A DNA stretch of 64,000 nucleotides, taken from NCBI GenBank assembly GCA_963575745.1, contig CAUYUJ010000001.1:1984001-2048000 (forward strand), read 5' to 3'. The DNA is from Prorocentrum cordatum. Lineage: Eukaryota. Positions 19,763 through 45,985 of this stretch are shown here, piece after piece. Position 1 is the stretch's first letter. Every line of letters begins with the position of its first letter. A program made the translations under genes and the position numbers. Under the pieces are notes generated by a model. The model had not been told where the DNA came from. It did not search any database and was given only the letters and a program-made list of their open reading frames with translations.

Positions 19763-19888
<126 letters not shown>

Positions 19889-19890
19889 GT

Positions 19891-19934
<44 letters not shown>

Positions 19935-23985: not shown

Positions 23986-24630
23986 GGCATTGACATCATG
24001 GAGACAGGCGGTGAGGAGGCGCGGGCCAGCAGACTCGCCGTCCGCCGCCGCCTCAGAGCGGGCGCCAACTTCGACTGAGCAACAGGTTTGTTCATCGACG
24101 ACGAGAACCAGCAGAGAGCCCTGGCGCGACATATCCGACACAATCGACCCTCAGTGGTCACCATGGGTCCCATCTGCTAGCCTTTCGGTCGTTAGGCCAT
24201 TTTCAATTACGTATGCAACTGCCGCACTTGGCTGCGCTCCTACGCGGACGGGGCCCGATCGGCCGACTCTGTGGCTACATGGCACTGCTACAGCTGCAGC
24301 TCGGCGGCTACTTCGCCAACGAGCTGCCCGACCCATCGCGGCCGTTCGTCGAGCCGCCTTGGAAGGTGGCGCCGGCAGTACCGGGCGCGCGCAAGGTCAT
24401 CTTCAACCGGCGCCAACTGGGACTTCGAAATCGTTGCGCGGGTATTTTGAGAGACCACTGGCCTGGTCTCCAACGCCCCAGGGCACCTCGAGCAGTTCGA
24501 GAGCCTCAAGTGCACCAGAATGCGCGCCCGCGTGCACGTCGGGGGCCGCAGCAGCACCGACGCCCAGGTCTGGCTTTGAAAGATGGACGAGCGGCTCGTC
24601 CGGGGCATCGTGGACTTACGCCGCCGCCTG
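23986..24630 (+). pseudogene. C5 cytosine-methyltransferase-like domain remnant in the copia pol
   Basis: Read across stops and frameshifts: IDIMETGGEEARAS (motif I-like), ANFD*ATG, VVTMGPIC*PF (PxC, motif IV), YFANELP (ENP-like, motif VI), FNRRQLG, LVSN..LKC, AQVWL*KMDERLV. Collinear with the domains at 42700-43432 and 45240-45985. Confidence 0.6.
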
Positions 24631-25289
24631 AAACGCTCGCATCTCGCGAACTATGTTCGCGAATGCGACGTCGAAACAGCAGCCTGTCCAGCAGCGGCCT
24701 CCCGGGCCACAGCGGGCGAAATCGGGGGCGCCATGGCCGCCGAGCGCGCGCGCTACTCGCGCAAGGCGCGCCGGCGCAACGCGCGGTCACTTTCGCCCAT
24801 GTGCTCCCGAGAAACGGCAACTAGCAGGCATCCTAACGGCGCCCGGCTGCGCTGGGAATGCCCAGGCTGCCGCGAGGAGAAAGAACGCGATCTCCCTGCG
24901 CGCGCCCGCGAGTTAAGCAAGCGCAGGTTCGCGGGCCCGCGCAGACGGCCGCGCCCGCGCGCCAGCCAACGCCCCCAAGCACCAGCGCGACCGGGAGGAC
25001 CAGCAAGCTCAACTGCCTGGAGGAGCCGACCTCGGAGCAGCAGACGAACTCGACTTGCCGCCGGCACCCGCAGGCGCGCTCATCGCCCAGCGTTGGAGCT
25101 CAGGGTGGCGTTTCCGGCAATTCAGCTGGACCACGACTACGAGCCAGTGCAGCAACCAGTTGAGTACCGAGACGTTCAGCACCGCGAGCTGCCGACGCCT
25201 CTGCGGGCAATCCAGCGCCTGCTGGCTGGGCTCGCTTCGACATCACCACGCCACTACGAGCGCCACGTGGCGACTCGCACGAGACATTT

Positions 25290-26050
25290 GCGAGAGCTAC
25301 GTAAGCTGCACCCCCAGCGGTGGCGCGCCACCGCGGAGGAAATGGCACGAGCGCTACGAGCAGCCAACATGCCACAGGCCATCCTCTACATCCTCCCTAC
25401 GGCGGTCAACGACTGCAGGGGGCGTCGCAAGTGGTTGCCACCAGCAAGCCAGACCGCCCCCACACTACGCCTTTCGATCCGAGTAGACCTGACGTCGAAT
25501 GCGACATCCTTCACTACATGAGCTACATGATACAGCACTTGATCTGCTGCGCCTCAAGGCGGCGCACTGGCCAGAAGCTCGCGAGCAGGTGCGCCTCAAC
25601 ACTGCTGGCGGCCATCGACTGGTCGCGGATCCAACAGTTCGGCTCGATGGAGACTTTCATCGTGGACGACGGCGGGATGACCTCTGAGTGCATTCATTGT
25701 GGAGGAGATGAGGATGCGAGGGGCGCAGGTGGACATCCGAGCTCCACGCCAGCACGCTCGTTTCATAGAGCGACGTGGCGCAATTCTACGACATGCGCTA
25801 CGCGCCCCCGGGGAGCGGCTGGAGCGCGAAGGCGCCGCCGCCCACTTCGACTCCGTGCTGGCCCACGCTGTCTTCGCGGGCAACAGCCTCACCCTTTCGT
25901 GGGCGGCGCAACCCCGCGCAACGTCGTCTTCGGCGACGGCCCCGCTGCTGGTGGCGTAGCGCAGCCCAGCCAGCTGCATCGGCGCATCCGTGACGTCGCC
26001 TTGCAGCGCATGATCAAGTATACTCCCATCGCCCGCGTTAACCGTGCCCT
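25290..26050 (+). pseudogene. Retroelement integrase remnant
   Basis: LRKLH..W.ATAEEM..L...DCRGRRKW (degenerate HHCC finger); VECDILHY..HLICCASR; QFGSMETFIVD; QHARFIERRGAILRH. Confidence 0.7.
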
Positions 26051-27149
26051 CCGGACACGCGCCGCGGAGACCGGAGGGGGGCGCTTCAACGTGGGTGACC
26101 AGGTGGAGATCCACCGGCCTCCTTGCACGAAAGACGCGTCGGGCTGGGAGCACGTTCCATTCTGTGGATCCAGCCAGAGCTTCAGACTGCAGGACGCACG
26201 GGCCTTCACCAGTGCCGTCTTCGACGCCATGGGCACCGGCGTGGCGCGAGCAGGCCTGGCCTGGAACCGCATGGAGGACCGCGGGGGGCGCGTCGCGGCA
26301 GGCCCAGGTGCCCGGACCTTCGGCCACTGGGAGGACGAGAAGGACAGGTAGTCGACCGAACAGGCTTGGCAACGGCCTGATGTCCTCGAGGCTCTGCGCC
26401 ACTTGTTCCGCATATGCTTTCAGTTACCAGACGTTCGGGCCGTGAGTCTTGTGCGTGGTCAGAAGTCTGCGGGCGATTGGCTGGGCTGCACCCGGAGCCT
26501 CGTTATTTGGCGGCCCCCATCGGAGCCCGAGAGACCTCCGCCAACTGCACTTGGACGGCGTCAAGTTCGACGCCCGCAGCCTCGTCGGCTAGCAGTTGCA
26601 GAACGCTCGCGTCATCCAAGTCATCTAGGGTCGCGAACATATATGATTGCAGCTGGCGCCGCGCAGGACCAAGACACGGCGTTCGACGGTCGCGTTATCG
26701 ACGCCCCCGAGGGCGCCGCCAGCGTCATCGAGGGCGGTTCACTATCAGCCCTGTCAGTGACACCCAATGAGGTCGACAGCGACTTCTCCGGCCACATCCA
26801 GCAGCTGACGCTGGCAGCCAGGCAGGAAGTCGAGGGGGCATAGGACCTCGCCCAGGAGCTGCAGGAGCTGGAGAGCACCGACAGCCAGCAGAAGGCCTAC
26901 GCTGCCGTCGAGCACGCGACCGCCAGCACGGGCCGCAGGCCACGCGAGTGGCGCGCCGGAAGACGCAGCACCGGCGTCTGCATGTCCACGCGCAGTGCCA
27001 CTACTACCTGCGCGGCGCCCCTTTGGGCGACTGCGCCAAGCTTGAAGAGAACGAAGGAGGAGAACACGTGGATTTGCACTTGGGCCCAGGAGTGCGACAG
27101 GCATTCCTCAGTTCCGCGACGGCAGTTATGTTTCCGACACGCCCACGAC

Positions 27150-28830
27150 AGCCGTGCTAAAAGTATACGCCGTTGTCATGACCGCGGCAATCGAGCGCGA
27201 CACCGCTCTCCTGGCCAAGGAGGAGGTATCGAGGCTGTCCAAAGAGGTGGCCGCAGCCATCCTCGAGGTGCTCACCATCTGGGTCAGGCACCATCGTTTT
27301 GAGCGGCGACCCCTCAATGGCGGTCGAGGCGTCGCGGGCTCCAGGCGCGCGGTCGAGTGGAAGCGCTAGAAGGGGCCGGGCGGCAATCTCCGATGCCGCG
27401 CGGCGCTGAGGGGCTCCGCGACGCGGGCGCCAGCGCCCTCGAGACGTTCGCCGGCGCGGCGAAGCGGGCGCCCCAGCGCATCCTGTCCTTAGAGGCGGCT
27501 TGTCGCCCAGACTGGGCGTGCGTCGCCGTGGACGTCGAGAAGGCGCTCCAGCGCGTGAACTTCACCCTGCCGCCCAGCAGTGCTGCCATCCTCGGGCGGG
27601 CCCCAGGCTGCGAGTACTTCGACGAGCGGACCGAATGCCTGCGCAGCATCAGGCCAGACACGGGCTGCAAGAATGCGCCCGGGGCTTTCTCCATGAAGCT
27701 CACCGGGGTCACGCGCTCGCCCGAGTGCAACGCCAAGTTGACGCGGTGGTGCGGTGGGGCCCAGGCCCAGGGCTCGAGGTCAAACGTGAGGCGTCTGGCA
27801 CATGTGTCTCCGGCGGCTCAGAGCTACTGCTCACGCTGTCCACGCACGTCGACGACTTGAAGATTGTTGGGCGCAAGGAGCACGCAGGCAGACTCATCGG
27901 CCACATCGAGAGCGTCTTCGGAAAAATGCAGAGCGACTTCGACGACTTCACCAACTGCGGCGCCCACCACCGCAGCGCCGACGATGCTGCAGCGCTCGAC
28001 CAGGACGAGTGCATCGACGCGCTGACCCCCGTCGGGCACGTCGACCTGGCCGAAGCAAAAACCGACGAGCCGGCAGGAGGTCCGCTTCCAGACCTCGTCG
28101 TCTCCCTCCTCAGAGCGGCCGCTTACGCGCTGCTCGCGCAGCGCCGCGTCGCGGCGTGCGCCGCCGCGCTGCATAGAGTGCCAACATCAAGCTATGCATC
28201 AGGCGCTCGACGCAGCTGAAAGCCGCGGTTCTGGCCACGCAGGAGATCAAGGCGCGCGTCGCATTCCCAGCGATGGAATGTGGCAGCCGGCTGTGCGCGC
28301 ACAGCAACGGCTCGTTCAAGCGCGAGGAGGAGACGGGATGCGGCATGCGAGGCGCCGTATATGCGCGTCGTGGCAAGTGTCGCAGAACCAGGCAGGAGGT
28401 ATGCCACCTGTTCGACGCCGTGGGTCGTCTACACAAACTTGCGCGTCCAATTTCACTCGGCTCAGAGCTGCTCGCCGCCTGCAGAGCAGCCGACGGAATG
28501 TGGGCCGACCTCCTGGTCCTCCGCGAGATGGTAGGTGGATTTGTTTCAGCCGAGGAGACCTAAAGATTGAGGGAGGAGGAGGCTATGCCGTGCTGGCCGA
28601 ACTCGTGATGGACGGCATTTCCGTGTTTTCAGCCCTGGCCGTGGACCCTGCTCGACAGCCATCAGAGGGCAGCATGGCCGCGCGCGTCTGGTGGCTGTCC
28701 GATCAGCTACGCACCAGACGAATCGACTACACCTTGTGGTGCGACACCAGAGAGGCGCGCGCCGACCCAACGACGAAGGGCCACACGGGCCGCGAAATAA
28801 TTTTGAGTATCATGGACGGCGGTTTCAGCC
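27150..28830 (+). pseudogene. Copia-type reverse transcriptase and RNase H remnant
   Basis: QRILSLEAA..DW..VAVDVEKALQ; STHVDDLKIVG; HSNGSFK; ELLAACRAAD; WCDTREARADPTTKG (copia RNase H ADxxTK). Confidence 0.85.
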
Positions 28831-29089
28831 ACGATGACAATAGCGTCAAGGTGAGAGACGAGAAACTGAAGGAAGCCACGCCCACCTCACAACGCAGCAG
28901 TCGTGCCAACAAGAAGATCGACGATTCAATTGGTTGAGCCACCTGGCGCCGCATCTCCCGAGGTGTGTTCGCGAGTGCAGTCAGGCTCGCATACCGCGAA
29001 CTGCGTTCGCGAAGACGACACAGTCCATCAGAGAGAATTATCCCGGCAGGAGGAATGGGGAGACGGCGCGAGGCAGGAACGGGATATGA

Positions 29090-30700
29090 CAGGAGAGCTG
29101 GCCGCGGTCACGGCGTCAGAGATCGCGGCAGCTCTGCGTGCCATGAAGGCCGGCAGAACAGGTGCAGACGACGGGCTTGTCATGGAAATGTTGCGGACGG
29201 GACATGTCGAGTTGATGAACGATTTGGCTTCCTATTTCACAGACGTGCTGGTCGGCGCCATGGAGCCGCCGAGCGAGTGCAAAGTTGCACGAGTGTCTGC
29301 GATTGTCGAGAAAGGTTCGCGAAGCGAGCTGAAAAATTGCAATCCGATATCGATCATTCCGGCAATGGCTAAGCTGTTCAGCACTGTGCTATACCGGCGT
29401 ATCCGCGACCAGGTCGAGCAGAGATATCATGAGGATCAGTGCGGCTTCCGGAGTGGCAGAGGCTGTGACGACGCTCTACACGCGCTGCGCATGGTGGCGG
29501 AGAAGTCCGGGGAGCGCGGGAAGGAGCTGTGAATGGCTACACTGGACGTCGAAAAAAAAGCATTCGACAGAGTGCACCACGCGCAGCTGTTCGAAGCCTT
29601 GAAGGCAGCGAATGTGGGCCCAAGTGTTGTCAACGTACTCCGGGCGCTCTATCGGGACATGTCGGCCCACGTCCAGGCGGCCCCGGGGTCGGAGAGCAGG
29701 CGCTTCCAAGTGCAGCGCGGTGTCCGGCAGGGGGGCCCGTTGTCACCAGTTTTGTTCAACCTGATCATGACACAGATTCTAGACGAAGCGAGCTGCGTCT
29801 GGCAGCGGCGCGGCTATGGCACTATTGTCGGCCAGGCGCTCAACGGACGGCGCCTCACGCGCGTGGCCTTCGCAGATGATGTGACCTTGACTTCGCGGAC
29901 GTGGACGTCGTTGAAGCGCATGATCTTGGCTTTGAAGGCTGCTCTACAGAAGAGAGGCCTTCAGTTACACCCGACAAAATGCAAAGTGCAAGCAAATCGG
30001 CCAGAAGCGTCGCGGAGGGGGGGCGTCGAATTGGAGGGCGGCTTCTCGGTCAAGGTGCTGGAAGAGGGCGAACCTTTGGAGGTGTTGGGCACGATGCTTT
30101 CCTTGACCGACGCGACAAAGGTTGAGACCGAGCATAGAGTAGCCACTGGTTGGCGCAAGTTCTGGGCAATGCAGAAAATGCTGCTGAACAGAGACGCCTC
30201 CCTTTCCTGCAGACTGAAGCTCTTCGACACGTCTGTTGGTGCATGCGTCTTGTGCGGCTCGAACTCCTGGACGCCGCGCGCGGCGGAGATCCGCTTCCTG
30301 ACGGCTGCGCAGAACAAGATGCTGCGCCGGATTTGCGGCTTCAGGCGCGCGCCAGAGGAGCAGCGGCACGCTCGGGTCCAACGGGCGACAAGGCGCGGGA
30401 CAAGGCGCAGGCGGTGGGAGTGCGAAGGTGGCCGGAGGCGCACGCCCAGAGGAAATGGTCGTGGGCGGGCCATGTTTCGAGAATGACCGCCGCGCCATGG
30501 GCGTGGAGAACGACGTTATGGAGAGATTCTGAATGGACCCGGGACACGAGGAACGACGGCCGGGGCCGGCTGACCCGACCTTCGCGCGTGAGGCGCATGA
30601 AATGGGAGGACCAGATGAGGCGTTTCTGTACGACGGAAGGACACCGCAGCTGGACCGCAGTGGCCGGGAACCGCGACAGATCAGCCTCTCAGATCAGCGC
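29090..30700 (+). mobile_element. 5'-truncated, disrupted non-LTR retrotransposon (RTE-like LINE) reverse transcriptase
   Basis: EIAAALRAMKAGRTGADDG; PISII; QCGFRSGR; LDVEKKAFDRV; GVRQGGPLSPVLFN; AFADDV; KWSWAGHVSR; RMKWEDQ. In-frame stop at 29530 and a frameshift near 30390. No endonuclease visible. Confidence 0.9.
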
Positions 30701-30929: not shown

Positions 30930-31190
30930 TGAACACCTAAGGATTCCGAGGGGTTCCTAGGGCATCCTTAGGCATCCTCAGGAATACACGGGGATCCTTA
31001 GGAGTCCTTAGGAGTCCTGAGGAAGCCGGATTCCCAGGGTTTCCTAGGGATTCCTCAAGATTCCAAAGGAATCCTAAGGATTCCTAAGGATTCCTGAGGA
31101 TGCTTAACTATGCCTATGGATTCCTAAGGATGCCCACGGCCTCCTAAGGATTCCTAGGGATTCTTAAGGATTCCAATGGATTCCTACGGA
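30930..31190. repeat. Degenerate 10-bp satellite (ggattcctaa)
   Basis: Repeated ggattcctaa / ggcatcctta / ggagtcctta units. Confidence 0.85.
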
Positions 31191-32281
31191 TGCCTCAGCC
31201 TGCTTCTGTCTCAGCCTCAGCCTCAGCCTGCTTCGGCTTGCCTCAGCCTCAGCCCTAGCCTGCCTCGGCCTCAGCCTCGGCCTGCCTCAGCCTCAGCCTC
31301 AGCCTGCCTAGGCCTCAGCCTGAGTCAGCCTCAGCTTCAGCCTGCCTCGGCCTGCCTCGGCCTCAGCCATTTTCAGCCTCAGCCTGCCTCGGCTTGCCTC
31401 AGCCTCAGCCTCAGCCTGCCTCGGCCTCAGCCTGCCTCAGCCTTCCCTCCCCCCCCCATTCAGCTTCACCTTTCCTCATCTTCGGCCTGCCTCGGCGTCA
31501 TCCTCAGCCTCAGCCTCAGTCTCAGCCTCAGCCTGTCTCGGCCTGAGCCTGCCTCGGCCTCAGCCTCAGCCTGCCTCAGCCTCAGTCTCAGCCTCGGCCT
31601 GTCTCAGCTTCAGCCTGCCTCAGCATCAGCCTCAGCCTCAGCCTCAGCCTCAGCCTGCCTCGGCTTGCCTCGGCCTCAGCCTCAGCCTGCCTTGGCCTCA
31701 GCCTCAGCCTGCCTCGGCGTGCCTCAGCCTCAGCCTCACCCTCAGCCTGCATCAGCCTCAGCCTCAGCCTGCCTCAGCCGCAGCTTGCCTCAGCCTCAGC
31801 CTCAGCCTCAGCCTCAGCCTCAGCCTCAGCCTGCATCAGCCTCAGCCTCAGCCTGCCTCAGCCGCAGCTTGCCTCAGCCTCAGCCTCAGCCTCAGCCTCA
31901 GCCTGCCTCAGCTTCAGCCGCAGCCTCAGCCTGCCTCGGCTTGCCTCAGCCTCAGCCTGAGTCTGCCTCAGCCTCAGCCTCAGCCTCAGCCTGCCTCAGC
32001 CTCAGCCTACCTCAGCCTCAGCGTCAGCCTTCCTCAGCCTCAGCGTCAGCCTCTCAGCCTCAGCCTGCTTCAGCCTCAGCCTCAGCCTCAGCCTCAGCCT
32101 CAGTCTCAGCCTGCGTCAGCCTCAGCCTGAGTCTGCCTCGGCCTCCGCCTGCATCAGCCTCAGCCTCAGCCTGCCTCAGCCTCAGCCTCCCTCAGCCTCA
32201 GCCTCAGCCTGCCTCGGCGTGCCTCAGCCTCAGCCTGAGTCTGCCTCGGCCTCAGCCTGCCTCGGCCTCAGCCTGCCTCAG
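31191..32281 (+). repeat. (GCCTCA)n hexamer-based satellite
   Basis: About 1.1 kb of cctcag/cctg variants. Confidence 0.95.
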
Positions 32282-32284
32282 TTC

Positions 32285-32683
32285 GGGCATTCAAAATATG
32301 GCACACGACGGGCGTTCTGGGAACACGAAGATCACGAAGTGACCCAGAATTGGCTCCGGGCAATGAAAATATAGTACAGGAGTGGTGTTTTGGGAACTCG
32401 AAGAACACGAAGTGGCCTACAGTTGGCCCCGGGCATTCAAAATGTGGCCTGGGAGTGGTGTTCTGGGAACACGAAGAACACGAAGTGGCCTAATGTTGGT
32501 TCCAGGCATTCAACATGGGGCCTGGGAGTGGTGTTCTGGGAAGACGAAGAACACGAAGCGGCCTACAGTTGGCTCCGGGCATTCAATGGCCTGGGACTGG
32601 TGTTCTGGGAAGACGAAGAACACGAAGTGGCCTACAGCTGGCTCCGGGCATTTAAAATGTGGCTTGGGAATGGTGTTCTGGGG
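32285..32683 (+). repeat. ~73-bp minisatellite, about 5.5 copies
   Basis: Units read ggcattcaaaatgtggcctgggagtggtgttctgggaacacgaagaacacgaagtggcctacagttggctccg. Confidence 0.9.
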
Positions 32684-35514
32684 AGTGCCCGGATCCTCCC
32701 TGGCACCCGCTCAGACCGTCCTGGGGAGTCCCGGGGAGTCCCCGGATCCTCCCCGGCATCCGCCCAAAACTCCCTGGGGAGTCAAGGTGCTCTCTTTTGA
32801 ACCCATTAGAAACCTATCAGTCTTCGCTGCTAGGGGAAAAAAGGTGGAAAAGTTTGCATGTCGCGCACTGCGTTCGCGAATGCTACGGAGTCAGCATGCC
32901 AGTGAGTGGGTCGCCTCCTCGTACTATGGTCGAGGGGCCGAACGTGTCGCACAGTTGAGCAAGCTAGTGATTGAGTTCTTGCCCCCTCCAATAACCTGCT
33001 GCTCGCGCAATTCTATATATGGAACCTATACTCGCGTCTCAAGTACGGACTCTCGCGGGGAACTTTCTTGCACGTGCTTCGGCAACAGACACAGTTGGGA
33101 ATGTTTACTGCAAGTACTCCGGCTGCAGATACAGCCAGCTGGAAATTTGATTGCAAGTGCTTCGGTTGCAGGTACACCCGGAATTTGTACTGCAAATGAC
33201 CCGGCTGAAGGAACAGCCGGAGACTTGTCTGCAAATCGTCCAGTTGCAAATTTCAACCAGAAGGTTTATTGCAAGTGCTGGCGCTGTAATTAGAATGAGG
33301 AGGGTGGTCAGTAGAACCTCCTGCTCTGCACCCTGGCCTGTCTGGAATTGTTTAGTCTAGCCAGTCCGTTGTGTTTCGGGTTTCTCCAGGTTGGAAAGCC
33401 ACCGAGGCACGACGGACCCTCTTGAACACCAGACTCGAAAGGTAGGTTACGTATGCTTGTCGGGCGTGGGAGGGCCTTTTTTTCCGTTGCCAGTTTGTCT
33501 TCCGGCTAGCATCCCGCGCCCGCTCTACTACACACATCGCTTTTAGACATACCTTCCGCTCTACGCTGAAAGATTATTGTTTCACCGTCCGTTTGACATT
33601 TCGAGTCCTCTTCCCTCCCTCCTCCTCTGTGCTCCCTGCCTTTTTTCCTCCGTTTCTCTTTACATCCTCCCTCCTCTTTGTCCTCTACTCCTCTCACCCG
33701 TCAATCCATTATCCTTCCTCGCTCTCACCTTCCATTGCGCATCCCCTTCCCCTTTTTTCTTCCTCCTTGTCGTCCTCCTCCTCCTTCTCCTCCTGGTCGG
33801 CCTCTTCCTCTGCAGAGTAACCATGCGCCTACGTCCGATCCGATCCGACCCTCCTCCTCCTCCTCCTCGCCCTCGTGTGGGACGGGGCTCTCCCCCAGGC
33901 CACGTCGCGCCTGGCGCTGCGGCTGCCAACCGGGCAGCGCATGCAGAGGAAGTTCCTTCCGACCGCTACCCTCAGGAGAGGGGCAGGGGCGGGATTCCAT
34001 GTCAGGGGCAGCGTTAGGGGGACATTGGCTAATTGAGGAATGCATCGGCAAACAATCTCAGAAAAATCGCCGATAGGGGCCAGATAGCCCATGCCGCCCA
34101 GGAACGCGTGGTTCTACTATCGAGAGCTTGTCGCCGATCTATCGATGATGCGTCGCCGTTCCCAGGTCCATGCGGGCGTGAGCTGCGTGCTCATTGGCCT
34201 TCTAGCCCTCCATTCGATTCACCGCGTTGCGGTTTCTGCCTGTCTTTCGGATGAGGATGCCTAGTTCTGAATGTTTCAATTGGCGCTGCCCGTCGCCCTG
34301 CTCGTCCTCGTCGCTTGTCGAGATTATTCCTGAGCGAAGCCATCATGTTGTCCACACCGGGCGAAGAAGCCCCGTTACTCCATTACGTTGCCAGATCGTT
34401 TAGGATTCACCTGCTTGACCTGTGAGTTGGCAGGCACCGCGCCTGTACCTAGACAGTTTCACGGTTCGTCTAGCCGCCAGCCTGTTTCGGAATGGCTCTC
34501 CAGGCCAATTCTTCTGTTAGCATCATTCGCTTGTTATTCATACAGGCAGCACTAGTCGCCCCCCAGCAGAGCCCACCACCCCAGCTGACATGCAGCACCA
34601 TCATAGTTCCCACTGACTGTCCGAAGCCATGGCTGAGTTTCTCTTCGTGTCGCGTCGAGGCGGACGGCCGGTACTTCGAATAGTTATTGGTGGAACAGCG
34701 CCTGAGTCTTCATTCCACGATATGACTGCACTTTCGTCCGTGCTGCCTCACCTGCGTGTGCGCAATGTTCGTTGCATTCCTCACACGCGAGCAGATTTTG
34801 ACAGAAGCGGAATCCGTCCAATGCAGGCAGAATTTGAGACACATGGAGTTTAGCGGAGGGACGTGTACGATTGGGCCGATTGCGTCGGCTTTATGCAAGA
34901 GAACAAGGAGAAAGACCTGGTGATACCGGAGCGCTTCACACTCAAGGAGGGCGGGAATGAAAGATGTAGGCAAGTGGTTGTGGGCAGGCAGAAGGAGGGG
35001 TGACGCAAGTGTCCACCGCGGTTCGAGGCAGAAGCGTGACTTCGTTTCAGCGAACATACAGGTTTGTCACCCTCCTCGGTTGTACATATGTTGCCTCGTC
35101 TGTTCTGCACAATCCATATCTGATCCCCCACACACGTCACAATGTATTACGTATACTCTTGCCAAGGCTGGCCAGCACAATCAGCAATATCCATTTATGG
35201 CAACGTTGGAATGGGTTTGAGGTGGAGGGGGTGTGCTTTGGGCGGTATGTCGTATCTGTGTGCGGGCCGAAGCCCGTGTCTGCCCGCTAACACAAGCGTA
35301 TTCCCCAACCTCGTGCTCAGAATATTTTGCAGGAGCAGCTGTTGACGTCGCTGATTAATTGTTTCCGTCCCCGCCTCATGCTGTTGCGAAGTTCAGAGCC
35401 AGCGCTCTTCACGAGACGGATCTGCGAACAAGAGGGAGAAGGAGAGAGAGAGAGAGAGAGAGTGGTCATATCCATCCAAATAAATCCGAAAGGTGCTTTG
35501 TGGGTTTGCGTGGG

Positions 35515-36150: not shown

Positions 36151-37146
36151 AGGAGAGTCGGCGCCAGGTGCGAACGCCGAACGCGGCGCGCGCCACCGAC
36201 ACTCGATCCTCACAACTCCGTGGACTTAATCCACGGGTCCACACTAGTATCTATATATATATATATTTATCGAGAAAGAGATACATAAAGAGAGAGAGAG
36301 AGAGAGAGAAAAACAAGAAAAAACGAGCAATCAAAGCCATCACATGTTCATCTTAGCGCAGCCTGAGGCGGATGAGAAACATTGGCAGAGTCGACGACAT
36401 CCGACTTAGCTGACCGAAGGCTCGGTGTGCAGCCGCCTGTTCCATCAGGTTTGGGCAACTGTGGTCTGTTTATCCACACTGCAGTTGCTCGGCGCCGCTC
36501 ACGCATACTAGAGCTCAGGCCTACCCGTCCTATGCAAAGCAGACAGCGGTTGCTCCCCTGGTCCGTCCCATTCCGTTGCAGGGGGGGAGGTGGAGGGCAG
36601 GAGGAGAGGGGAGGGAAGAGGGACACAGCCGGGGAGCGGAAGAGGGCTGGGGATTGGGAGGTGCGAGGGGAGGTGCGAGGAATGTGAGGGCATCGGGCTT
36701 CGATGAAAGGGGATCCAGTATCGAGGGTCCTGACTTGAAGATCGAGGGCCGAGGTTCGGGGAACAACATCTTTGGAGCTACTCGTGATCCTTCTTGTGCC
36801 TCCAGATGTTTCCCCAGGCCTCTGGGCACCCCTGACGGCCTCCAGGTCCTGCAGGGAGCGGGGGATCAGGGCCCCGTGAAGCATGGCCTTGTCAGCCAGG
36901 ACTCTGCCACACCAGGCGGCAGAGAGGCGAGATTGGAGGACGTCTCGACGCACGGCTGCAGTGGCCCCCCAGAGCGCTACCGTCCTGGCTCCTCCACACA
37001 TCTACATACGCAGACACCCGCCAATGGATTGTTCTTGGGCCTCAGGGGAGGGCGGCGGTGTATGAATTATTATCAGGAGCCAGCGACTTTATGCACCGCA
37101 ACCCTTCCTGAGGGTACATACAAAATTCTTCAGAGGGTGTCTGTGT

Positions 37147-37147
37147 A

Positions 37148-37195
<48 letters not shown>

Positions 37196-37314
37196 CATAC
37201 ATACATACATACATACATACATACATACACACACATACATGCATACATACATACATACATACATACATACATACATACATACATACATACATCTACGTAT
37301 CTACATACATATAT
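37147..37314. repeat. (TA)n/(TACA)n microsatellite; apparent target of the DIRS-like insertion
   Basis: The tract ends at the element's left ATG, and TATATATA resumes at 43880. Confidence 0.9.
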
Positions 37315-37394
37315 ATGCGTTGTGCTTGCACATTAATGATCTCTTGCTGCGTTCAGTGCCGTATGTCGCAACTTATGCTCAAGTTTTTCCAGGA
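37315..37394 (+). repeat. Split direct repeat A1
   Basis: atgcgttgtgcttgcacattaatg...caagtttttccagga is identical to 43588-43667. Confidence 0.97.
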
Positions 37395-37407
37395 GAGGAT
37401 TTCCCGG

Positions 37408-37833
37408 ATGGGGGCTCAGTCCGCCCTCATCGAGTCCTTCCAGACCGCAGGGATCCGCGCTCTCGAGCTGCTGGCGCTGCGCCAGTCCCTGCTCTCGGCG
37501 GTGCCCCAGTGCCCCGCTGTCTCGCTGGCGTGCCCGCCCGCGAACGTCACGTGCCCCGTCCAGGTCTGCCCAGCGCTGGCCTGCCCCACGCCAGCGTGCC
37601 CCGTGCCGCTGGTGAACCTCTCCTGCCCGCCTGCAGGAGTGGCGCTCGGGCCTGACGGGCTTGACGTGCCCTCGGCCTGCTGGGGGTACCTGGCGGGGGT
37701 CTCCGCGGGGCTCGGGCTGGGCGGTGCAGTCTGGCGGCGCGGCGGCCGCGCCGGCGCCGAGTCGGCGGGAGTGGGAGATCGAGCGCGGGAGCAGCTGCAG
37801 CTGATCAGGAGACGCAATGGCGAGAGTAGGTGA
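37408..37833 (+). CDS. Small element-encoded ORF (141 aa) with Cys-Pro repeats and a predicted C-terminal membrane segment
   Basis: [42 protein letters not shown], then [20 protein letters not shown]. Overlaps the gag start. Confidence 0.6.
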
Positions 37834-39139
37834 CTATGTGCTCTTCCAGTACGACTTGCCTGGACCGCCTGTGTATCATGAAAGGCTCGTGACGGGGGTC
37901 TCGATAGGGGATCCAGGTCTCGTCAGCACGTATTCGCCTGATGGAGACCACTATGCAGAATATACGACGTCGGACGACCTCAGAGATGTGCGGTGGTCGG
38001 GGACGCAGGGCGCGACCCCGCCCGGTGTCAACCCGGCCCACGTCTACCGCTTCCGCCAGGTGCCGACGGCGGCGGAGGTCCAGCAGCTGATCCGCGAGGG
38101 CTCGCTCCTCGTCGGGGGCGTGGCGCCGCCTGCTGCCGCTGCCCCCGCCGCCGCGGCGGCGCCCGCGGCGGGTCCTCCCGCGGCGGCCGCACCCCAGGGA
38201 GCCATCGTGCCTCGCGGCGCTGGCGTGGTGGGAGGAGTCCCGCGCGCTGGGGCCGCGGCCGCCCCCGCAGCGGCTGGCACAGTGTGGCTGGCGATCGAGG
38301 ACTACCAGGGGATGCGGCGCGGCGAGCAGATGCCTGACCCGCTCCCGCAGGGCGCCGTCGTTCACGGAGACCTGGCGCTGGTGCCTCATGCAGGGGGCTT
38401 CGTCGGAGCGCGCCAGGTGGCCATGGCCGACGTGGACGCCTTCGTCGTGGACGACCTGCGCGTGCTGCCCGTGCGTTTCAACCAGCAGGGGGCGCGCCGC
38501 CGCCCATACAGCGAGGCCGTGGACATGCAGATCGTGGACGAGCCCGAGGGCGGCATCATGCTGCAGGGGCCTCGCACTACTGACTGGGTGCTGCGGTCGT
38601 ATCGTAATGCCGGGCTCACGCCAGTCACTCATCATTCGAACTGGCTGAGGTCGGCGCGTATCCCTGATGGAGATCGCTCGGTTCACGAACACGAGGTTCT
38701 GTGCCACGTGCTGGAGGCGATGGTGACCGTGGATCAGCTCAATGCCCCAGCGCTCCAGAGCGCTGAGCTCGTCGTGCGCAGGATTCAGGTCATAGAAGAC
38801 GCTCACTCGGCCTCTCCCTCGAACCCGGACTACTCCGCGGCCGACGAGTTCATGGGCTGGGCCACTCATCGCCAGGGCGCCGCGGTCGCGCCCGACTTGC
38901 AGCGCCACGTTGCCGCGGGCGTGCGCGACCGGGCCGCGATCCTCAAGGAGGCTCGCAAGGCGAAGGAGGAGCAGAAGCTGCGCCGCGGCAAGGGGGCGGC
39001 AGGACCGACGCCAGCGGCACTGGCGGGCAGGGAGCATGACGGCTCCCAGTCGCGGGGGCTGGCCGGCCCGCGACGGACACAAGGCCTGTGGCGCCTCGGC
39101 GGCACGCACCTTCCGTCCTCACGCTGTTCCTGGCGCTGA
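37817..39139 (+). CDS. Gag-like ORF of the DIRS-like element
   Basis: Intact 440-aa ORF in the gag position with GC-rich third positions. [22 protein letters not shown] and a basic KEARKAKEE end. Assignment is mainly positional. Confidence 0.7.
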
Positions 39140-39257
39140 GGGTCGTGGGGTACCGACCGACTGTGGCCGTGGGGGCCCAGCGGCACGCACCTCACGTCCT
39201 CCAGCCAGGGCAGCCTTCGGGGATCGGGAGGTACCGACCGTCCGAGGATCGTGTGAC

Positions 39258-41480
39258 ATGGGACGCCCTCCTGGGCTGAGAGCAGCTGAAGATCGCCAGC
39301 GTGATCTGTTCCCGCTGCCCTCCATTCAGCCGACTCCGCCTACTTCTGCGCCAGCGTCTACGTCGACGAGGCGAAGGCTGGCTCACAGGCGGCAGACGGA
39401 GCAGTGTGCCAATGATGCCATTGCGGGCCTCAACGCTCTCCATCCTCCTTGCGAGCAGCGTGGGCCCATCACGGCGGCTCAGCGACTCGCGACCGCCACC
39501 ATTTTGAACGAGGTCAGGATGGCCCCGAAGTCTGACACTCAATTTTCTCGCCGTGGAGCCGCGAAGGAGCTCCTGGCCTCCAGCCTGTCCTACACCGCGG
39601 ACGAGGCACCGAGTCCCGTGGTAAGGTACGTCAGATCCCGAGTCGACATCCCAGAAGTGGGTGCGGTCATACCTCCTGTCGAGTCGGTGCTCGACGGGAT
39701 CGGGAGGAACTACGTGCTGGACTACGAGCAAACGATGATGAAGACTCCCGACGAGTGGTCCCGCGTCTTGGATAGCGAGCCGCCCGTCACTCCCTACATG
39801 GGCGAAGTTTTGAAGCGTGACCCTGTGGCGTACAACACCTTCATCGGCGACCTGGTGAAGGCTAACATGCTGGGGTTCACGAACCGCCCGAAGGACCTGG
39901 TCACCCCTTTCTTCGTGGCCAAGAAGAGTGGAGCACAGCGTCTCGTCTGGGACGCTAGAGTGCCAAATCGACGTTTTCGCGACCCGCCGCCGCTGGCCAT
40001 GGGGACATCGGCTGCGCACGGACGCCTTCAGCTACCTGATGATCGTGAGGAGGGCGGCAGCTTCAGCACCAAGCTCTTCTGTGCCCAGGCGGATGTGCGC
40101 AACTACTTCTACGCTCTCGGCCTGAGGGAGGAGCTGGGACTGTTCTTCTCGCTGCCGCTGGTGTCACAGGCTTCGTTGTCGCAATGGGGGGTTGAGGCAG
40201 TGGACACTCCCGAGGGCCCCTCAGGGGGCTGGGTCTGGCCGTTCCTGCGGGTCGTGCCGATGGGCTGGTCTTGGGCTTTCTGGCTTGGGCAGCGTGCGAA
40301 TGCGCGCGTCCGCTGCTCTGCCTCGGGGCTCGGGTTCCCGCGGGTGCTGACCGATCACGGTCCGGTGCCCCCGCTCGACGGGGGGGCCCTTGCCTCTTAC
40401 CCTATTGCGATAACATCAACGTGATCGGCACTGACCCTGACAAATGCAATGTCCTGATGCACCAGATCTGCGACGCCTGGAGGAAGCATGGCGTGCAGAT
40501 CCACGAGGTGGTTGAGGCCACCGACGTCTTCACCGGCCTCGGCCGCCTGATCGACGGCGCGTCTGGGCGAGTTTTCTCACGGCCCGAGCGCTCCGAGCGC
40601 CTCCGCCAGGCCTCACTGTGGCTAGAGCAGCGCCCTAGAGTCACGGTGAGGGAGGTGGAGAGGTATGTGGGTCATCTCATTGATCATTTGATGCTGAAGA
40701 GGGAGCTGCTCTCGATCCTCAGGAGTTTGTATGATTTCGTCAGAGATTGCTATCACGTGCGAGCACGTCTCTGGCCCTCAGCTGCCCGCGAAGTCGAGCA
40801 GTGCCGTCGCTTGCTGCCGCTGATGTCTGCTAACCTTCGGCTTCAGTGGTCGCCGACTGTCTTCGCCTAAGACGCTTGCCTGACGGGTATGGCGACGTGC
40901 CAGACAACACTGTCATCGGATCTTGTCAAGCGCATCGGGTCAGTCAGTGAGAGATGGAGATATCGCATGCCTTCGGCTATCTCGGCACGCCGGTCAGCTC
41001 TGGGAGTCCGTTCTGGATGCGACGAGGCCTCGGAGGGGCCGTTCGACGTCTTCAGCGACGTCGAGACCGTCAAGGCCCCCAGGAGTACCAGCATGGACCT
41101 TGTCAAGGACCCCTGGGAGCTCAACCCGCAGTTCACAGAGGTGCCCGTCCAGGCTCTGCAAGGCCCCCAGTGGAAGCAGGTGGTCTCGGCCAGGGTTCAC
41201 GTCAAGGAGCCCATCACGATTATCGAGGGGAGGGCTTCGAACATGACATCACGTCATATCACATGGGCACAGGCCTCTTTTGGTCTCCGTCATCTGCGTT
41301 TCGGGGACAACCTCGGCACCGTGCTCGCGCTCGGACGTGGGCGATGCTCCTCCTACCCCCTTCTGCTGTGCTGCCGCAGAGAGGCTGCCTACTCCGTCGC
41401 CACTGCGTCGCGGTTCGAGCATCGGTGGATACCTTCGGAGCTCAACCCTTCCGATGAAGGGTCGAGGCGCTGGGATGCCA
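39258..41480 (+). pseudogene. DIRS-type RT-RNase H (pol) with one frameshift (~40385, G-run) and one stop (40868)
   Basis: PFFVAKKSGAQRLVWDAR.PN; ADVRNYFY; PMGWSWA; PYCDNINVIG. RNase H motifs VFA*DAC, IIEGRA, FGDNL, RWIPSELNPSDEGSR. Confidence 0.9.
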
Positions 41481-42848
41481 AGTCGGGAGGTATCTCGCCT
41501 GCCCCGCGCGGCGCCCGTCAAGCGCCCGGCTGCCAGCCCCAAGATTGCGCAGAAGAGCTTCCTGAAGGGCAGGACGTTCGTGGGGGCGACGAAGGAGGAG
41601 AGGATCGCTCACCGTCTGCGGGCCTCTGGGCCGTTCGCGATGGTGGGGGAGGACGAGAGGAGCTTCCTGGAGTGGAACGCGGTGGCGCCCGAGACCCAGG
41701 GATACTACAAGGACGCCCTCGACGACTTCCAGACGTTCGTGGACCTCTTCGGGCTGCCGCTGCGCACCGCTGCTCAAGTCGACCTGGCGCTGATGAACTA
41801 CGCCGATTACGCCTGGAGCATCGGGCTCGAGAGAGCCGCCGTCCTGAAAACATATGCCGCGTACATCTCGGCGCACCCCGACTTTTCCCGAAAGAGGTCG
41901 CTCCGCCTGCCGCGTTTCTGTCGGGCCCTCCAGGGTTGGAAGCGCCTGGACCCAGGCCAGACGCGCCCGCCTATGCCCTGGCAGGTGGTCGCGCTGGTCG
42001 CACTGGTGATGGCCACGCAGCTGGGGTCCCCGCACGCGGCGCTCATGGTGATGACGATGTTCTGGGTGTACCTCAGGCCCTCCGAGGCCGTCGGCCTGCG
42101 CGAGCAGGACCTCTTCCTCCCCTCGGGCTCGCGCACGGACTACGGCTTCAACCTGCACCCCAGCGCGAGGGGCGAGTACAGCAAGACCAGCATGTCGGAC
42201 GTGAGCTTGCTCCTCGATTCGGTCGAGGTGCCCTGGCTGGGCCCGCTGCTGGCGCGCGCGAGGTCGGGAGACCCGCAGGCGCCGCTGTTCCGTCTCACCG
42301 CCGCGCAGCTCGGCGTCCTGTGGCGCCAGTCGCTGGAGCGGGCCGAGGTGCCCACCAGGTACGTGCCCTGCCAGCTCCGCCACGGGGGCCCGTCGCACGA
42401 TCGCCTCAAGAGGTATCGATCCATGGGCGAGATCAAGAGGCGCGGGCGGTGGGCCAGCGACTACACGATGAAGCGCTACGAGGCCCATGCGCTGGCGCAG
42501 CAGGAGCTCGCAGCGCCCCCGGACGACGTCCGCCGCAGGGCCGAGGCGGCGCCCGCGAAGCTGCACGCCGAGCTCGAGAGGCTCCTGGCGCGGCCCCAGA
42601 GGCCGCGGACGGCCACGCCGTCGGCGCGGCTGCAGGCGGCGCCCGCGCCCAGCATGCGCCGCCCCGCACCTTCTGCCAAGGTGCCGCAGCCCGCGCCCGT
42701 GCCAGGTTTTTCGTCGAGCTCATGTGCGGCTCCGCCGCCTTTGCCAAGGCCGTCCACGCCGCCGGCTGGGCTTCGGAAGGCTGGGACTACGCTGATGACC
42801 CGCGAGCCGACCTTCTTGATGAATCCCTCATCGACAGTCTGGTATTGA
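41475..42848 (+). CDS. Tyrosine recombinase (integrase) of the DIRS-like element
   Basis: YLRPSE (Arg I), SKT (Lys), CQLRHGG (Arg II), RGRW, KRYE (catalytic Tyr). Confidence 0.9.
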   Translation: MPSREVSRLPRAAPVKRPAASPKIAQKSFLKGRTFVGATKEERIAHRLRASGPFAMVGEDERSFLEWNAVAPETQGYYKDALDDFQTFVDLFGLPLRTAAQVDLALMNYADYAWSIGLERAAVLKTYAAYISAHPDFSRKRSLRLPRFCRALQGWKRLDPGQTRPPMPWQVVALVALVMATQLGSPHAALMVMTMFWVYLRPSEAVGLREQDLFLPSGSRTDYGFNLHPSARGEYSKTSMSDVSLLLDSVEVPWLGPLLARARSGDPQAPLFRLTAAQLGVLWRQSLERAEVPTRYVPCQLRHGGPSHDRLKRYRSMGEIKRRGRWASDYTMKRYEAHALAQQELAAPPDDVRRRAEAAPAKLHAELERLLARPQRPRTATPSARLQAAPAPSMRRPAPSAKVPQPAPVPGFSSSSCAAPPPLPRPSTPPAGLRKAGTTLMTREPTFLMNPSSTVWY

Positions 42849-43432
42849 GGATCTCACGGAAGGAGGTCGCGGGGGTGCATGTTGGCCTGGACTGCAAAAC
42901 GTGGAGCCGGGCAAGGAAGAATGATGGACGGGGTCCGCCGCCACTCAGGGACGACGCGAACGTGCACGGCCTCCCTCGGCTGGCGGCGGCGGACGCTGAG
43001 AAGGTTAGGATCGCCAATCGTCTGCTCGCTAATGTTCTGCGCCTGCTGGCTGCTGCCGTCGAGGCGGGAGTCCCTTTCTCTCTCGAGAACCCTCGCTCGT
43101 CTCGCCTCTGGCTGGTCCCGGAACTTCTGGACAGGGCCCGCGAAGCTCACGCCGAGTGGGCTTCTGTTGATTACTGCCAGTATCAGGTCCCCTGGAAAAA
43201 GTCGACAACCTTTTTGCTATCCAATTGGCTGCCAGCGCAGCCGTCCCTCCGCCTGTGTACAGGCTGTCAAAAAAGGTGTAGTGCCACTGGTAAGGCGCAC
43301 ATAACACTGAAGGGTAAAGACCCGCTCGGTGTGTTCTGGACCTCGAGAGCGCGTCCTTACCCCGCGGCGCTCTGCAAAGATCTCGCAGCGCTGGTGGTGG
43401 CCAAGGCCAAGACACTGGATGGCAGTGGGTAG
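42700..43432 (+). CDS. C5 cytosine DNA methyltransferase-like domain, uninterrupted
   Basis: FFVELMCGSA (motif I), GWDY..D..ADL (II/III), VHVGLDCKTWSRAR (IV Cys), FSLENP (VI), DYCQY..PWKKST (VIII-like), ARPYP..LC (X-like). Confidence 0.8.
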
Positions 43433-43879
43433 GGGCTCAGAGTCTTGAATGCCGCTCGCTCAGTCTGGTCAGGTCAGCGCCCTCGTGCTGCCCTGTCACC
43501 GCCTGCCGCTCGTTCTCTTGAATTGCTTCGAAGCAGCGGAGCATGCCGAAGGAAAAGTGATCTTGGCACGGGTAGCAGCCTAAACTCATGCGTTGTGCTT
43601 GCACATTAATGATCTCTTGCTGCGTTCAGTGCCGTATGTCGCAACTTATGCTCAAGTTTTTCCAGGACCCGCCTGCCGTCCCCATCTTCCACCTTCCTGG
43701 GCGTCACTTCGCCAACCCAGGGGGCTCAGAGTCTTGAATGCCGCTCGCTCAGTCTGGTCAGGTCAGCGCCCTCGTGCTGCCCTGTCACCGCCTGCCGCTC
43801 GTTCTCTTGAGTTGCTTCGAAGCAGCGGAGCATGCCGAAGGAAAAGTGATCTTGGCACGGGTAGCAGCCTAAGCTCATG
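43432..43879 (+). repeat. Right-end split repeats B1 (43432-43590), A2 (43588-43667), B2 (43721-43879)
   Basis: Direct sequence comparison. Confidence 0.97.
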
Positions 43880-45239
43880 TATATATAGTCATGGCGCACT
43901 GGCGTTTCGAAGTCCTCGCCGACGGGGCTCGGCAAGGCGCCCGCGCACAGGCTGCTCGAGGAGACTCCTAGCGAGCAGTCGGCGCGCGCCCGGGACGCTG
44001 CGTCCCCGCCCGCGGGCCGCTGAGACACCCCGGGTCTCCGTGCAACCTTGATGCGGCTGGCTTCGGCCTCGAGTCAGCCTCAGCAGGGGTGGGAGGAGAG
44101 GAAGCGGAGGAGGATCGGATCGGATCGGATCAGCTGCAGTCAGCTTCTGCCGGGGGCGTGTCGCGGCCAAGTGTGCCACAAGAAGCCACGGGCCTGTTCA
44201 AAACAGGCGTATCCGATCGTGGGGTCCAAGTGATGTGACCCTTATCGACAAACTCGACTGTGGAAGCACGAGCAAAGATACATGACAGGGCACCTGACGC
44301 CCAACATACCCCCACCCAATCACAATTCATCATAATCAACCCATCTCCCACCTCCTCCTCATAGGCGGGGGGCAGGCACGCGCGGCGCGCCTCGCCGATG
44401 TAGGTGTTCCCGACCCATCGGGACGGATGGCACGGGGGGAGAAAGCAAGTCATGAAGCACGAGCACGCTGCTGCTGCGGCTTGCTCTCTTTCTTTCTCTC
44501 TCTCTCTCTCTCTCTCGCATACAAAAAGAAGAAAGACAAATCATGCCAACTCGACGGCGCACATATGAAAATCGTGCTGCACAAGCCTAACCAAGGCACG
44601 TTTGTGATGAATAAAGATAATAACACACCATCAGAAATCCTCCTCCTCCACCTCACATGTAATCATACCCTAACCTCCTGAAGTCAAGTGCGTGTAGCAG
44701 CTCGAAACCGTTGGTGCAAATCAGCCTGGACGAAATCCCGATTCGACGAACTCATGTCTCTAGCATGCTCGCCGAACAGGTTCATGGACGCAATGGGGAA
44801 CCGTCTTGCATCAGCCTCTCTAGCACTTCTCCGTCTGAGAGTTTCTGCTCGATTCTCTGTTATTCTATCAAGCAGTGACTGGGAGAGACAGGGGGGAGGT
44901 TTAGGGGGATGGGGAAACAGACGAAGTGGAATCCTCTCGTCTGTCCTGAGATGGTAAAATCGGCCGAACCTCAACAGCAGACAGGATGGCAATCGAATGA
45001 GAGTTCTCCAAATCCTGATCATCGTTGGCAGGCTCGTCACCTGTGGTCAGGTCGAGAGCTTTCCTAATGTGTGCAATGGTCGACTCTCCTCTCGTCGATC
45101 TAGCCACGGCGAAATCAGGACCCATCTCAGGAGCGTCCGAAGAACACCGAATAGACTCAACAAACAACTTACGTAGAGCTAGAGTCTCTGTGTGGTCTGA
45201 TTCCTAAACACAAAATCTACAGAAGGCAACACTACATTC

Positions 45240-45985
45240 AGAAGAGCCTGACCTAAAACTGTGCACATCGCCTCCGGATCGACTTTCTTGGGGGCAGTTC
45301 TGAAAGTCTTCCTGTCAGAATCCCGTCCGAGCAAAGTATTGTGAGCTCTGGGTCCGTGGCTACACTTGCCCCTCCAGGAGTTCTTAGCAACATGTCAGGC
45401 AAAGTCCCTAGACGTATAGCAAGGATACCTGTGGGTGCCCTGCCCGCCAGCTGTCCGAATTCGCACTGGTCAAACTCAGTAGATGAGGCACACGGGGCAC
45501 TGGCGAGAGCTCTGGCAGGCCTAAAGCTCCAAGACGGAGCAGCTCTCGGTTTCCAGACAGGGGAAGCATGATGTTCTCCCAACCCACATCTTCCTACTTC
45601 AGCACATACCGAGAGCAACTCGATGTGTGACATGAATAGAACATTCGCGATCTGAACCTGAAGCCGCTGCCTAGGGATGATGGCCTCTATGCCCCATGGT
45701 GCAGCCCAGGAACGCAGCGGAGGGGGGCCTCCGTCCTTTCAACGTGCAGCCGAAAAAGTTTCGCACGGAGGCCCCCTTCCTACTGCAGCAACTCTGCCTG
45801 CCCGAATGTGTTCAATCCAAAAACTTCCTGTGGCAGGCTTGCTGAGGTCGCCCGCTTCTTTGTCTATGATGATATCAAAAGGCAAACACCTGAGCTCTAC
45901 ATTCGGAAGAATAGTTTCTAGCATTATCTCAACGGCCGCCCTGGCGCCGCTTTCCGCAAAAGAGATTAGCACTAAAAATCGTCCT
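45240..45985 (-). pseudogene. C-terminal C5 methyltransferase-like domain of the LINE ORF2
   Basis: LFCGKRRQG (motif I, across a frameshift); FDII.D..GDL; GPPCETFSAAR*KDGGPPPLR (IV); LGEHH (VI-like); FDQCEFG..PT; AHNTLLGRD..FRTAPKKVDPEAMC. Confidence 0.8.

Follow-up and report, generated by a model that had tools for sequence, protein, structure and literature searches.

A DIRS element ending in a methyltransferase-fold domain

We analysed a stretch of 64,000 nucleotides (nt) from the dinoflagellate Prorocentrum cordatum (assembly GCA_963575745.1, contig CAUYUJ010000001.1, positions 1,984,001 to 2,048,000 of the forward strand), referred to here as the window; all coordinates are positions within it. 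The sequence is eukaryotic, has a GC content of 50-68% and contains a single run of N. A first-pass annotation made from the sequence alone had proposed that three retrotransposons in this window, of the copia, DIRS and long interspersed nuclear element (LINE) classes, each carry a collinear cytosine methyltransferase (MTase)-like domain. Profile comparisons bore this out for the DIRS element, the domain of which matched the profile of the family described below with an E value of 4.4e-92, and for the LINE segment, which gave a chain of collinear matches scoring 79.3 bits. By comparison, no unrelated 800-nt window scored above 8.5 bits. The copia segment, however, scored at the level of noise.

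The DIRS element (Table 1) has split direct repeats instead of long terminal repeats (LTRs), and it combines reverse transcriptase (RT), RNase H and a predicted tyrosine recombinase, as expected for the DIRS order. As the repeats are 99-100% identical, the data suggest that the element is young and was inserted recently. A microsatellite, (AT)n/(ATAC)n at 37127-37332, directly adjoins the left copy of repeat A. Polyprotein relatives could be mapped over 37916-43429. The database protein closest to the DIRS polyprotein, an unnamed product of P. cordatum, was 93% identical, and further named relatives were from Polarella glacialis and Symbiodinium natans. Five of the 20 clusters looked up were named ones (P. 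cordatum, 2; P. glacialis, 1; S. natans, 2).

Residues 151-522 of P0033, a P. glacialis polyprotein, aligned to 37916-39121 in the first open reading frame (ORF1) with 41% identity; no Pfam family was found in this gag-like ORF. The relatives of ORF2 (P0012, P0004 and P0033) gave weak matches to RVT_1. The RNase H region begins at about 40370 in frame 2, and P0053 and P0030 align in this frame from about 40364 across the in-frame TAA that interrupts the pol frame at 40868-40870, before ORF3. The translation of the nested recombinase ORF (P0173) matched P0005, P0004, P0032 (residues 797-1096) and P0078, and Pfam Phage_integrase did not match it. We regard it as a probable tyrosine recombinase because it is homologous to these relatives and because R...HxxR...Y motifs could be recognized by eye.

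The MTase-fold domain had been placed at 42700-43432, and its boundaries were refined here to 42704-43429. It contains the motifs ELMCG (motif I), GLDCKTWS (IV), ENP (VI), CQYQVPWKKST (VIII-like) and PYP (X-like), as well as a C..C..H pattern that constitutes a putative zinc module.

Table 1. Positions of the elements and domains considered in this study (L017, a metagenomic locus; aa, amino acids; RH, RNase H; MT, methyltransferase)
Feature	Coordinates	Strand	Remark
DIRS-type tyrosine-recombinase retrotransposon	37315-43879	+	split direct repeats, A-coding-B-A-B
Repeat A	37315-37394 = 43588-43667	+	100% identical
Repeat B	43432-43590 = 43721-43879	+	99% identical
ORF1, gag-like, 440 aa from ATG	37817-39139	+	ORF list
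ORF2, DIRS-type RT	39036-40424	+	tblastn of P0012, P0004 and P0033 onto 39285-40400, frame 3
ORF3, RNase H region, long linker and C-terminal MTase-like domain	40889-43432	+	
Predicted tyrosine recombinase ORF	41454-42848	+	frame 3, nested in the RH-MT linker of ORF3
MTase-fold domain, 242 aa	42704-43429	+	C-terminal end of ORF 40871-43429, frame 2
Decayed second copy of the domain	45182-45990	-	three collinear profile matches, one in-frame stop, one frameshift
C2H2 zinc-finger-like remnants	46266-46997	-	between RT remnants and MTase remnant
Decayed LINE-type RT fragments	46919-48507	-	collinear with the L017 ORF
Decayed apurinic-type endonuclease	49239-50084	-	blastp to the L017 ORF, E 1.2e-9
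'Copia' stretch	23986-24630	+	motif-like strings only, unsupported as an MTase domain

The domain defines a large family with the predicted fold of C5-cytosine methyltransferases

When 1.84 billion cluster representatives were searched exhaustively with HMMER, at least 4582 of them matched the domain at E<=1e-3, and for 145 the match held at E<=1e-30. Many of the matches form the C-terminus of a polyprotein about 1400 aa long, and 7 of 18 long matches contained a weak Pfam match to RVT_1. An alignment of 38 short family members and the profile built from it (A1) were used for subsequent comparisons.

A set of 80 metagenomic loci was retrieved with A1 (139 confirmed relatives), and 40 of them have at least 3.5 kb of sequence upstream of the domain. 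DIRS RT, RNase H and tyrosine recombinase were each found in 38 of these 40 loci, the recombinase mostly as a separate ORF nested within the pol ORF. In the window element, RNase H and the MTase domain are separated by a linker of about 400 codons, which stays open and is overlapped by the recombinase ORF. Most of the 38 informative loci (e.g. L007, L009, L012, L023 and L035) show the same nesting, indicating that this DIRS lineage has conserved a long overlap of two frames.

Conservation was scored over 152 domain sequences, no pair of which exceeds about 50% identity. The motif IV cysteine (C64), which corresponds to the catalytic nucleophile, is kept in 146 sequences and the proline preceding it in 136. 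The glutamate and proline of ENP in motif VI (E128 and P130) are invariant and N129 is present in 150; the proline stands in place of the valine of the Glu-Asn-Val of motif VI in all 152. R82 and G89 are likewise found in 152 of 152 sequences, and the motif II position is Asp or Glu in 135. Four further residues, C158 (149/152), C185 (152/152), C192 (151/152) and H199 (149/152), make up a putative Cys3-His zinc site.

An AlphaFold2 model computed from the A1 alignment had a pLDDT of 94.4. When this model was compared with the PDB using Foldseek, C5-cytosine MTases accounted for 50 of 50 among the matches listed, including DNMT1, DNMT3A/B, MET1, Dnmt2, M.HaeIII and M.HhaI. The model has the S-adenosylmethionine (SAM)-dependent MTase fold with the topology of C5-MTases.

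Viral methyltransferases connect the family to PF00145

A scan of viral contigs identified small ORFs in two loci (L081 and L082) that match the family profile with E values of 1e-11 and 2e-9, respectively. With scores of 30.6 and 32.6 bits, both ORFs exceed the PF00145 cutoff of 22, and they match phrog_757, annotated as 'DNA methyltransferase' (E 1e-27 and 4e-26). An hhalign comparison of A1 with the two ORFs gave a probability of 98.8% (E 7.8e-17, 171 columns), and the signature CQYG..W.K.T is common to the viral-contig ORFs and the retrotransposon family. These phrog_757-type viral MTases resemble the family in their DLFAG..GWS, SPPCEAFS, IENP, CQYG..W.KPT and C..C.H motifs and in their length of about 250 aa, which is near that of the family. 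Unlike the family, each is encoded by a gene of its own on a viral contig and is detected by PF00145. A family domain borne by a Copia-type element at metagenomic locus L059 (see below) matched phrog_757 directly (E 2.4e-6), the window DIRS copy did not match it, and a tblastn search of the domain against phage genomes returned only noise (E 0.4).

As the family is linked to the L081 and L082 ORFs, which themselves pass PF00145, we conclude from sequence comparison that the domain is a divergent branch of the C5-cytosine MTase superfamily. The C5-MTase fold proposed in the first-pass annotation is supported by the fold searches together with the hhalign match to PF00145-positive proteins, though PF00145 itself misses the domain.

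In a quick phylogenetic tree, the viral pair formed a long-branch outgroup and the transposon-borne family was monophyletic (support of 100). The L059 domain nested among DIRS-borne members with moderate support (SH-aLRT 87-92), and the LINE copy of the window sat unplaced on a branch of length 3.14. The MTases of L081 and L082, at 256-338 aa, are a candidate source lineage for the retrotransposon family.

A broken copy of the domain lies beside LINE-type remnants on the minus strand

The domain that had been assigned to a LINE at 45240-45985 of the minus strand is present as a broken copy at 45182-45990. Its three pieces cover profile positions 28-77 (45742-45990, E 1.1e-6), 82-186 (45256-45738, E 4.9e-11) and 195-239 (45182-45394, E 2.8e-4), and a tblastn comparison with the DIRS domain gave an E value of 2.4e-7. 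The copy keeps GPPCETFS, with PPC at motif IV, and its ENP has decayed to EHH. Its identity to DIRS-borne members is no higher than 26-36%, and no relatives of the domain remnant piece were found in protein databases.

The remaining segments of the minus-strand element were compared with an ORF of 1491 aa from metagenomic locus L017, which contains Exo_endo_phos (36 bits) and RVT_1 (40.9 bits), both above cutoff. RT fragments at 48010-48507 and 47705-48091 matched this ORF in collinear order (E 1e-5 and 1.7e-4, respectively), and the segment at 47437-47901 gave an ESM Atlas lead in which RVT_1 clusters made up 24 of 30 matches (score 0.94). The endonuclease remnant gave a lead to Exo_endo_phos clusters, also with a score of 0.94. 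The zinc-finger-like remnants include a weak zf-C2H2_4 match at 46266-46511 (E 0.013) and a CPFCEF...H motif seen in the translation. A phmmer search of the RT-like and endonuclease-like fragments against the PDB returned nothing useful, and a single-sequence AlphaFold2 model of the endonuclease-like ORF (pLDDT 36) was not used. Upstream of the endonuclease, an RNase H-like segment was recognized by eye at 50275-50829 of the minus strand; the L017 ORF weakly matches RNase_H at its N-terminus (residues 81-226, E 0.0054). In a LINE, RNase H is unusual at this position.

Because the remnants are collinear with the L017 ORF, with its Exo_endo_phos, RVT_1 and weak RNase_H matches, and because of the ESM Atlas leads, the minus-strand element reads as RNase H-like, endonuclease, RT, C2H2 and MTase domain, all decayed. 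On the basis of strand, order and proximity, the MTase remnant probably belongs to this LINE-like element.

Locus L017 shows a similar neighborhood, in that its minus-strand LINE ORF (3-4475) adjoins a plus-strand DIRS element (4699-8258) carrying the MTase domain. The LINE family and its DIRS neighbor are arranged head to head in L017 and tail to tail in the window. This adjacency may reflect chance in a repeat-rich genome or a common insertion preference.

Interpretation of the locus

The best explanation for these results is that the window contains a young DIRS element with a minimal member of the C5-MTase superfamily, from a large family invisible to Pfam, and that a decayed LINE-like element has a pseudogenized copy of this domain at its 3' end. 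We assign this interpretation a probability of about 0.7.

Several observations weigh against it. The window DIRS copy may be defective because a frame change is needed near 40370-40420 and a TAA stands at 40868, and it has Asp-Cys at motif IV where 136 of the 152 relatives have Pro-Cys. C5-MTases contain FxGxG at motif I, QxRxR at motif VIII and GN(S/A)V at motif X, whereas in this family motif I is reduced to F-x-G, motif VIII reads WRKxT and motif X reads PYP. PF00145 gave no match to the window DIRS copy at E<=1, remaining below its gathering cutoff, and neither did any other Pfam family at that threshold; at E<=10, PF00145 matched 2 of the 38 family members (best E 0.019) and missed the other 36. 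A phmmer search of the domain against PDB sequences found no match, and the A1 profile reached PDB sequences only at sub-significant E values of 0.2-1, with C5-MTases constituting 23 of 32 among the matches listed and aligning at motifs I and IV. Pfam matched none of the minus-strand LINE fragments of the window except for the weak C2H2 finger. Moreover, linkage of the broken copy to the LINE is only probable because the related L017 ORF ends, at the end of its contig, before the expected position of an MTase domain. Finally, SAM binding and SAM-dependent methyl transfer to cytosine C5 are activities that we infer from the conserved catalytic residues and from the published behavior of other transposon-borne DNA methyltransferases (DNMTs).

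If the domain acts as a C5-MTase, it would bind SAM and flip cytosine out, the motif IV cysteine would attack C6 and the methyl group would go to C5, with the small Cys3-His module replacing the usual target-recognition domain. The element would then methylate its own cDNA or new insertion and thereby blend into the heavily CG-methylated dinoflagellate genome. Methylation of the element's own cDNA, which the first-pass annotation had put forward as a possibility, is likewise inferred from these catalytic residues and published precedents.

It is also conceivable, albeit rather unlikely, that the C5-MTase fold was kept for another role, such as acting on RNA (like DNMT2), modifying another base, transferring another group or serving as a non-catalytic DNA-binding module. 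The diverged motifs I, VIII and X, the replacement of a target-recognition domain by the Cys3-His module and the Asp-Cys of the window copy would fit such a role. On the other hand, almost all of the 152 diverged sequences keep the catalytic cysteine and the ENP glutamate, a pattern that speaks for covalent catalysis having been retained, and the closest relatives in sequence carry the annotation of viral DNA MTases. In addition, the retrotransposon DNMTs of Symbiodinium and Klebsormidium are reported in PMC5890265 to methylate CG de novo.

Unlikely to a similar degree is the possibility that the remnant at 45182-45990 is a stranded 3' fragment of another element, such as an old DIRS, that abuts the 3' end of the LINE. 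Such an origin would account for the 275 nt without a continuous frame between the zinc-finger remnants and the domain; the domain is DIRS-borne in 38 of the 40 informative loci, and the L017 relative stops short of the domain region. However, 169 family polyproteins gave no DIRS RT, RNase H or recombinase match on the minus strand between 46 and 51 kb, and in strand and order the remnant agrees with those of the endonuclease, RT and zinc finger. Its low identity to DIRS-borne copies and its long separate branch also argue against a stranded DIRS fragment.

A Copia-type carrier exists, and the copia stretch of the window resembles the domain only in isolated motifs

At metagenomic locus L059, an ORF encoding CCCH zinc fingers comes first, and the MTase domain occupies residues 435-677 (E 5.6e-70) of the 2205-aa ORF after it. 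RVT_2 scored 31.1 bits in this second ORF, just under the cutoff of 31.6. A protease-like DTG region and an integrase-like HHCC and DDE region were recognized by eye, the latter accompanied by an SH3_retrovirus match (E 0.0085), which places the MTase domain between protease and integrase. Judged by these sequence features, L059 is a Copia-type polyprotein carrying the family domain. The first-pass annotation had envisaged one module shared across retroelement orders, with the copia stretch of the window as one of its carriers. The DIRS element, the probable LINE and L059 support sharing, and the copia stretch does not. Support from L059 for the wider idea is independent of that stretch.

The copia stretch contains the strings ETGG, GPIC and NELP. 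It did not align with the other two domains in profile comparisons, the outcome that had been named in advance as refuting the claim. The A1 collinear chain scored 3.4 bits (rank 64 of 1264 windows) and the 152-sequence profile 3.8 bits, both at noise level. Among 5100 overlapping read-through tiles, the best one of the stretch ranked 12 with 5.2 bits and was outscored by several unrelated loci; a Copia-subgroup profile gave 2.8 bits (rank 20). The L059 polyprotein had no tblastn match in the stretch at E<=10, PF00145 had none in the read-through frames at E<=0.1, and database searches returned no relatives of the read-through or of the dUTPase ORF described below. We conclude that chance motif resemblance in GC-rich decayed sequence is the most likely explanation for the copia stretch.

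Neither RVT_2 nor rve matched the read-through frames (E<=0.1) or the ORFs (E<=10) of the surrounding element (22-28.8 kb), so that its copia class is also without Pfam support. No LTR pair flanking 21.5-28.9 kb was found, and self-comparison detected no second copy of the element within the window. The signs that do point to copia are HVDDLKIVG-type motifs read by eye and an RT match to L059 with an E value of 0.023.

That the copia stretch is nonetheless a decayed MTase copy, such that all three element classes of the window carry the module, is improbable: the spacing of about 56 codons from ETGG to PIC is close to the 55 between motifs I and IV of the family, the location between dUTPase and integrase-like sequence corresponds to the position of the L059 domain, and a missed match is weak evidence in an element so decayed that its RT barely matches L059, but only the motif IV neighborhood scores, motif I, motif VI and the C-terminal part are unmatched, and the rank of its tile cannot be taken as a fair probability, given that the site was picked by motif scanning.

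At 7592-7693 of the plus strand, a lone C..C..H..L.G match reached 9 bits in a single tile, and 4.3 bits when a longer stretch was scanned; it was without collinear partners and was rejected as noise.

The decayed copia-like element contains a dUTPase (PF00692, E 1.8e-11, above cutoff) at 22375-22645 of the plus strand, within an ORF at 22162-23208. This dUTPase is upstream of the integrase-like and RT-like remnants and appears to be an accessory dUTPase in a dinoflagellate LTR-type retrotransposon. No dUTPase was seen in the Copia-type L059 locus.

Comparison with known retrotransposon-borne methyltransferases

DNMT-bearing retrotransposons of Symbiodinium, to which the first-pass annotation had referred, have indeed been described: PMC5890265 (2018) presents Symbiodinium elements of the DIRS and LINE types and a Klebsormidium Gypsy element, all of which bear DNMTs, and dual-methyltransferase LTR elements are the subject of bioRxiv 10.64898/2026.05.21.726589 (2026). 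As described by de Mendoza et al. (2018, PMC5890265), SymbioDIRS-Dnmt3 is likewise a dinoflagellate DIRS with A-coding-B-A-B repeats, a C5-MTase-type domain in Pol and a separate tyrosine-recombinase ORF. Its domains, however, were found by PF00145 and cluster with Dnmt3. The window DIRS domain lacks this detectability by PF00145, is about 240 aa long, carries a Cys3-His module where a target-recognition domain would be expected and belongs to a family linked to phrog_757-type viral MTases. SymbioLINE-Dnmt, also described in PMC5890265, resembles the minus-strand element as a dinoflagellate LINE with an orphan C5-MTase, but its DNMT ORF is located upstream of the RT ORF, whereas the window remnant is downstream of RT and C2H2 and is missed by PF00145. 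As far as tested, and on the basis of these descriptions, the domain does not belong to the DNMT lineages described in Symbiodinium retrotransposons.

The motif DPPY is that of Dam-type N6-adenine MTases. The family has PC and ENP motifs instead, and no Dam-type Pfam family matched the window copy at E<=1 or the 38 members at E<=10. None of the fold-search matches listed has the title of an adenine MTase, which is not in itself evidence of a difference. The classical DIRS1 MT occupies the same slot, at the C-terminus of pol after RT and RNase H and with a recombinase ORF overlapping pol (PMC3266345), and it is described as Dam-like in PMC5890265 and in bioRxiv 10.64898/2026.05.21.726589.

KnitGypsy-Dnmt3 and the EpiLTRs share with L059 an LTR-type polyprotein that carries a C5-MTase. 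They are Gypsy/chromovirus-like and have Dnmt3- or DNMT4-related domains in other positions, in contrast to L059, which is of the RVT_2 (Copia) type with its domain between protease and integrase.

A literature search on DNMT-bearing dinoflagellate retrotransposons turned up the 2018 paper and its follow-ups only, and found no description of a PF00145-negative family; the supplements of PMC5890265, which are possibly relevant, lay outside that search. What is new here is a C5-type family invisible to Pfam in the slot of the DIRS1 MT, as DNMT-bearing DIRS and LINE elements were already known.

These findings have several consequences. According to the Figure 1 legend of PMC5890265, DNMT genes were counted by their PF00145 domain. 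Because PF00145 misses a family with thousands of members, the MTase load of dinoflagellate retrotransposons may be seriously undercounted in surveys of transposon-borne DNMTs that relied on it. A cytosine-type enzyme would occupy the pol slot in which the classical DIRS1 enzyme is described as adenine-type, and the same module occurs in DIRS, Copia-type and probably LINE elements. If active, the members of this family would be candidate writers of the unusual genome-wide CG methylation of dinoflagellates and, at about 240 aa with a zinc module instead of a target-recognition domain, among the smallest C5-MTases.

These points can be combined into a single scenario, which we offer tentatively as it has less than an even chance of being correct in all its parts. 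The family would be a third, possibly the most abundant, lineage of C5-MTases in dinoflagellate retrotransposons; it would have originated from a small phrog_757-like enzyme of phage or virus type, taken over the MT slot of DIRS1 and passed from DIRS to Copia and LINE elements, and it would be active, adding to near-complete CG methylation in genomes without DNMT1 and DNMT3.

Other features of the window

A second LINE-type RT follows the copia-like RT remnant at 28870-30483 of the plus strand (RVT_1, E 8.4e-31 in a read-through frame). No MTase-like domain was found in this plus-strand LINE, and a tblastx comparison with the minus-strand LINE gave no match at E<=0.01. Tandem arrays of 10-bp and 16-22-bp repeats extend from 30936 to 32717, after this RT. 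Upstream of the copia-like element, the region from 17400 to 20000 contains long purine-rich arrays of the GGA/GAG type and related periodic repeats of 9-12 bp.

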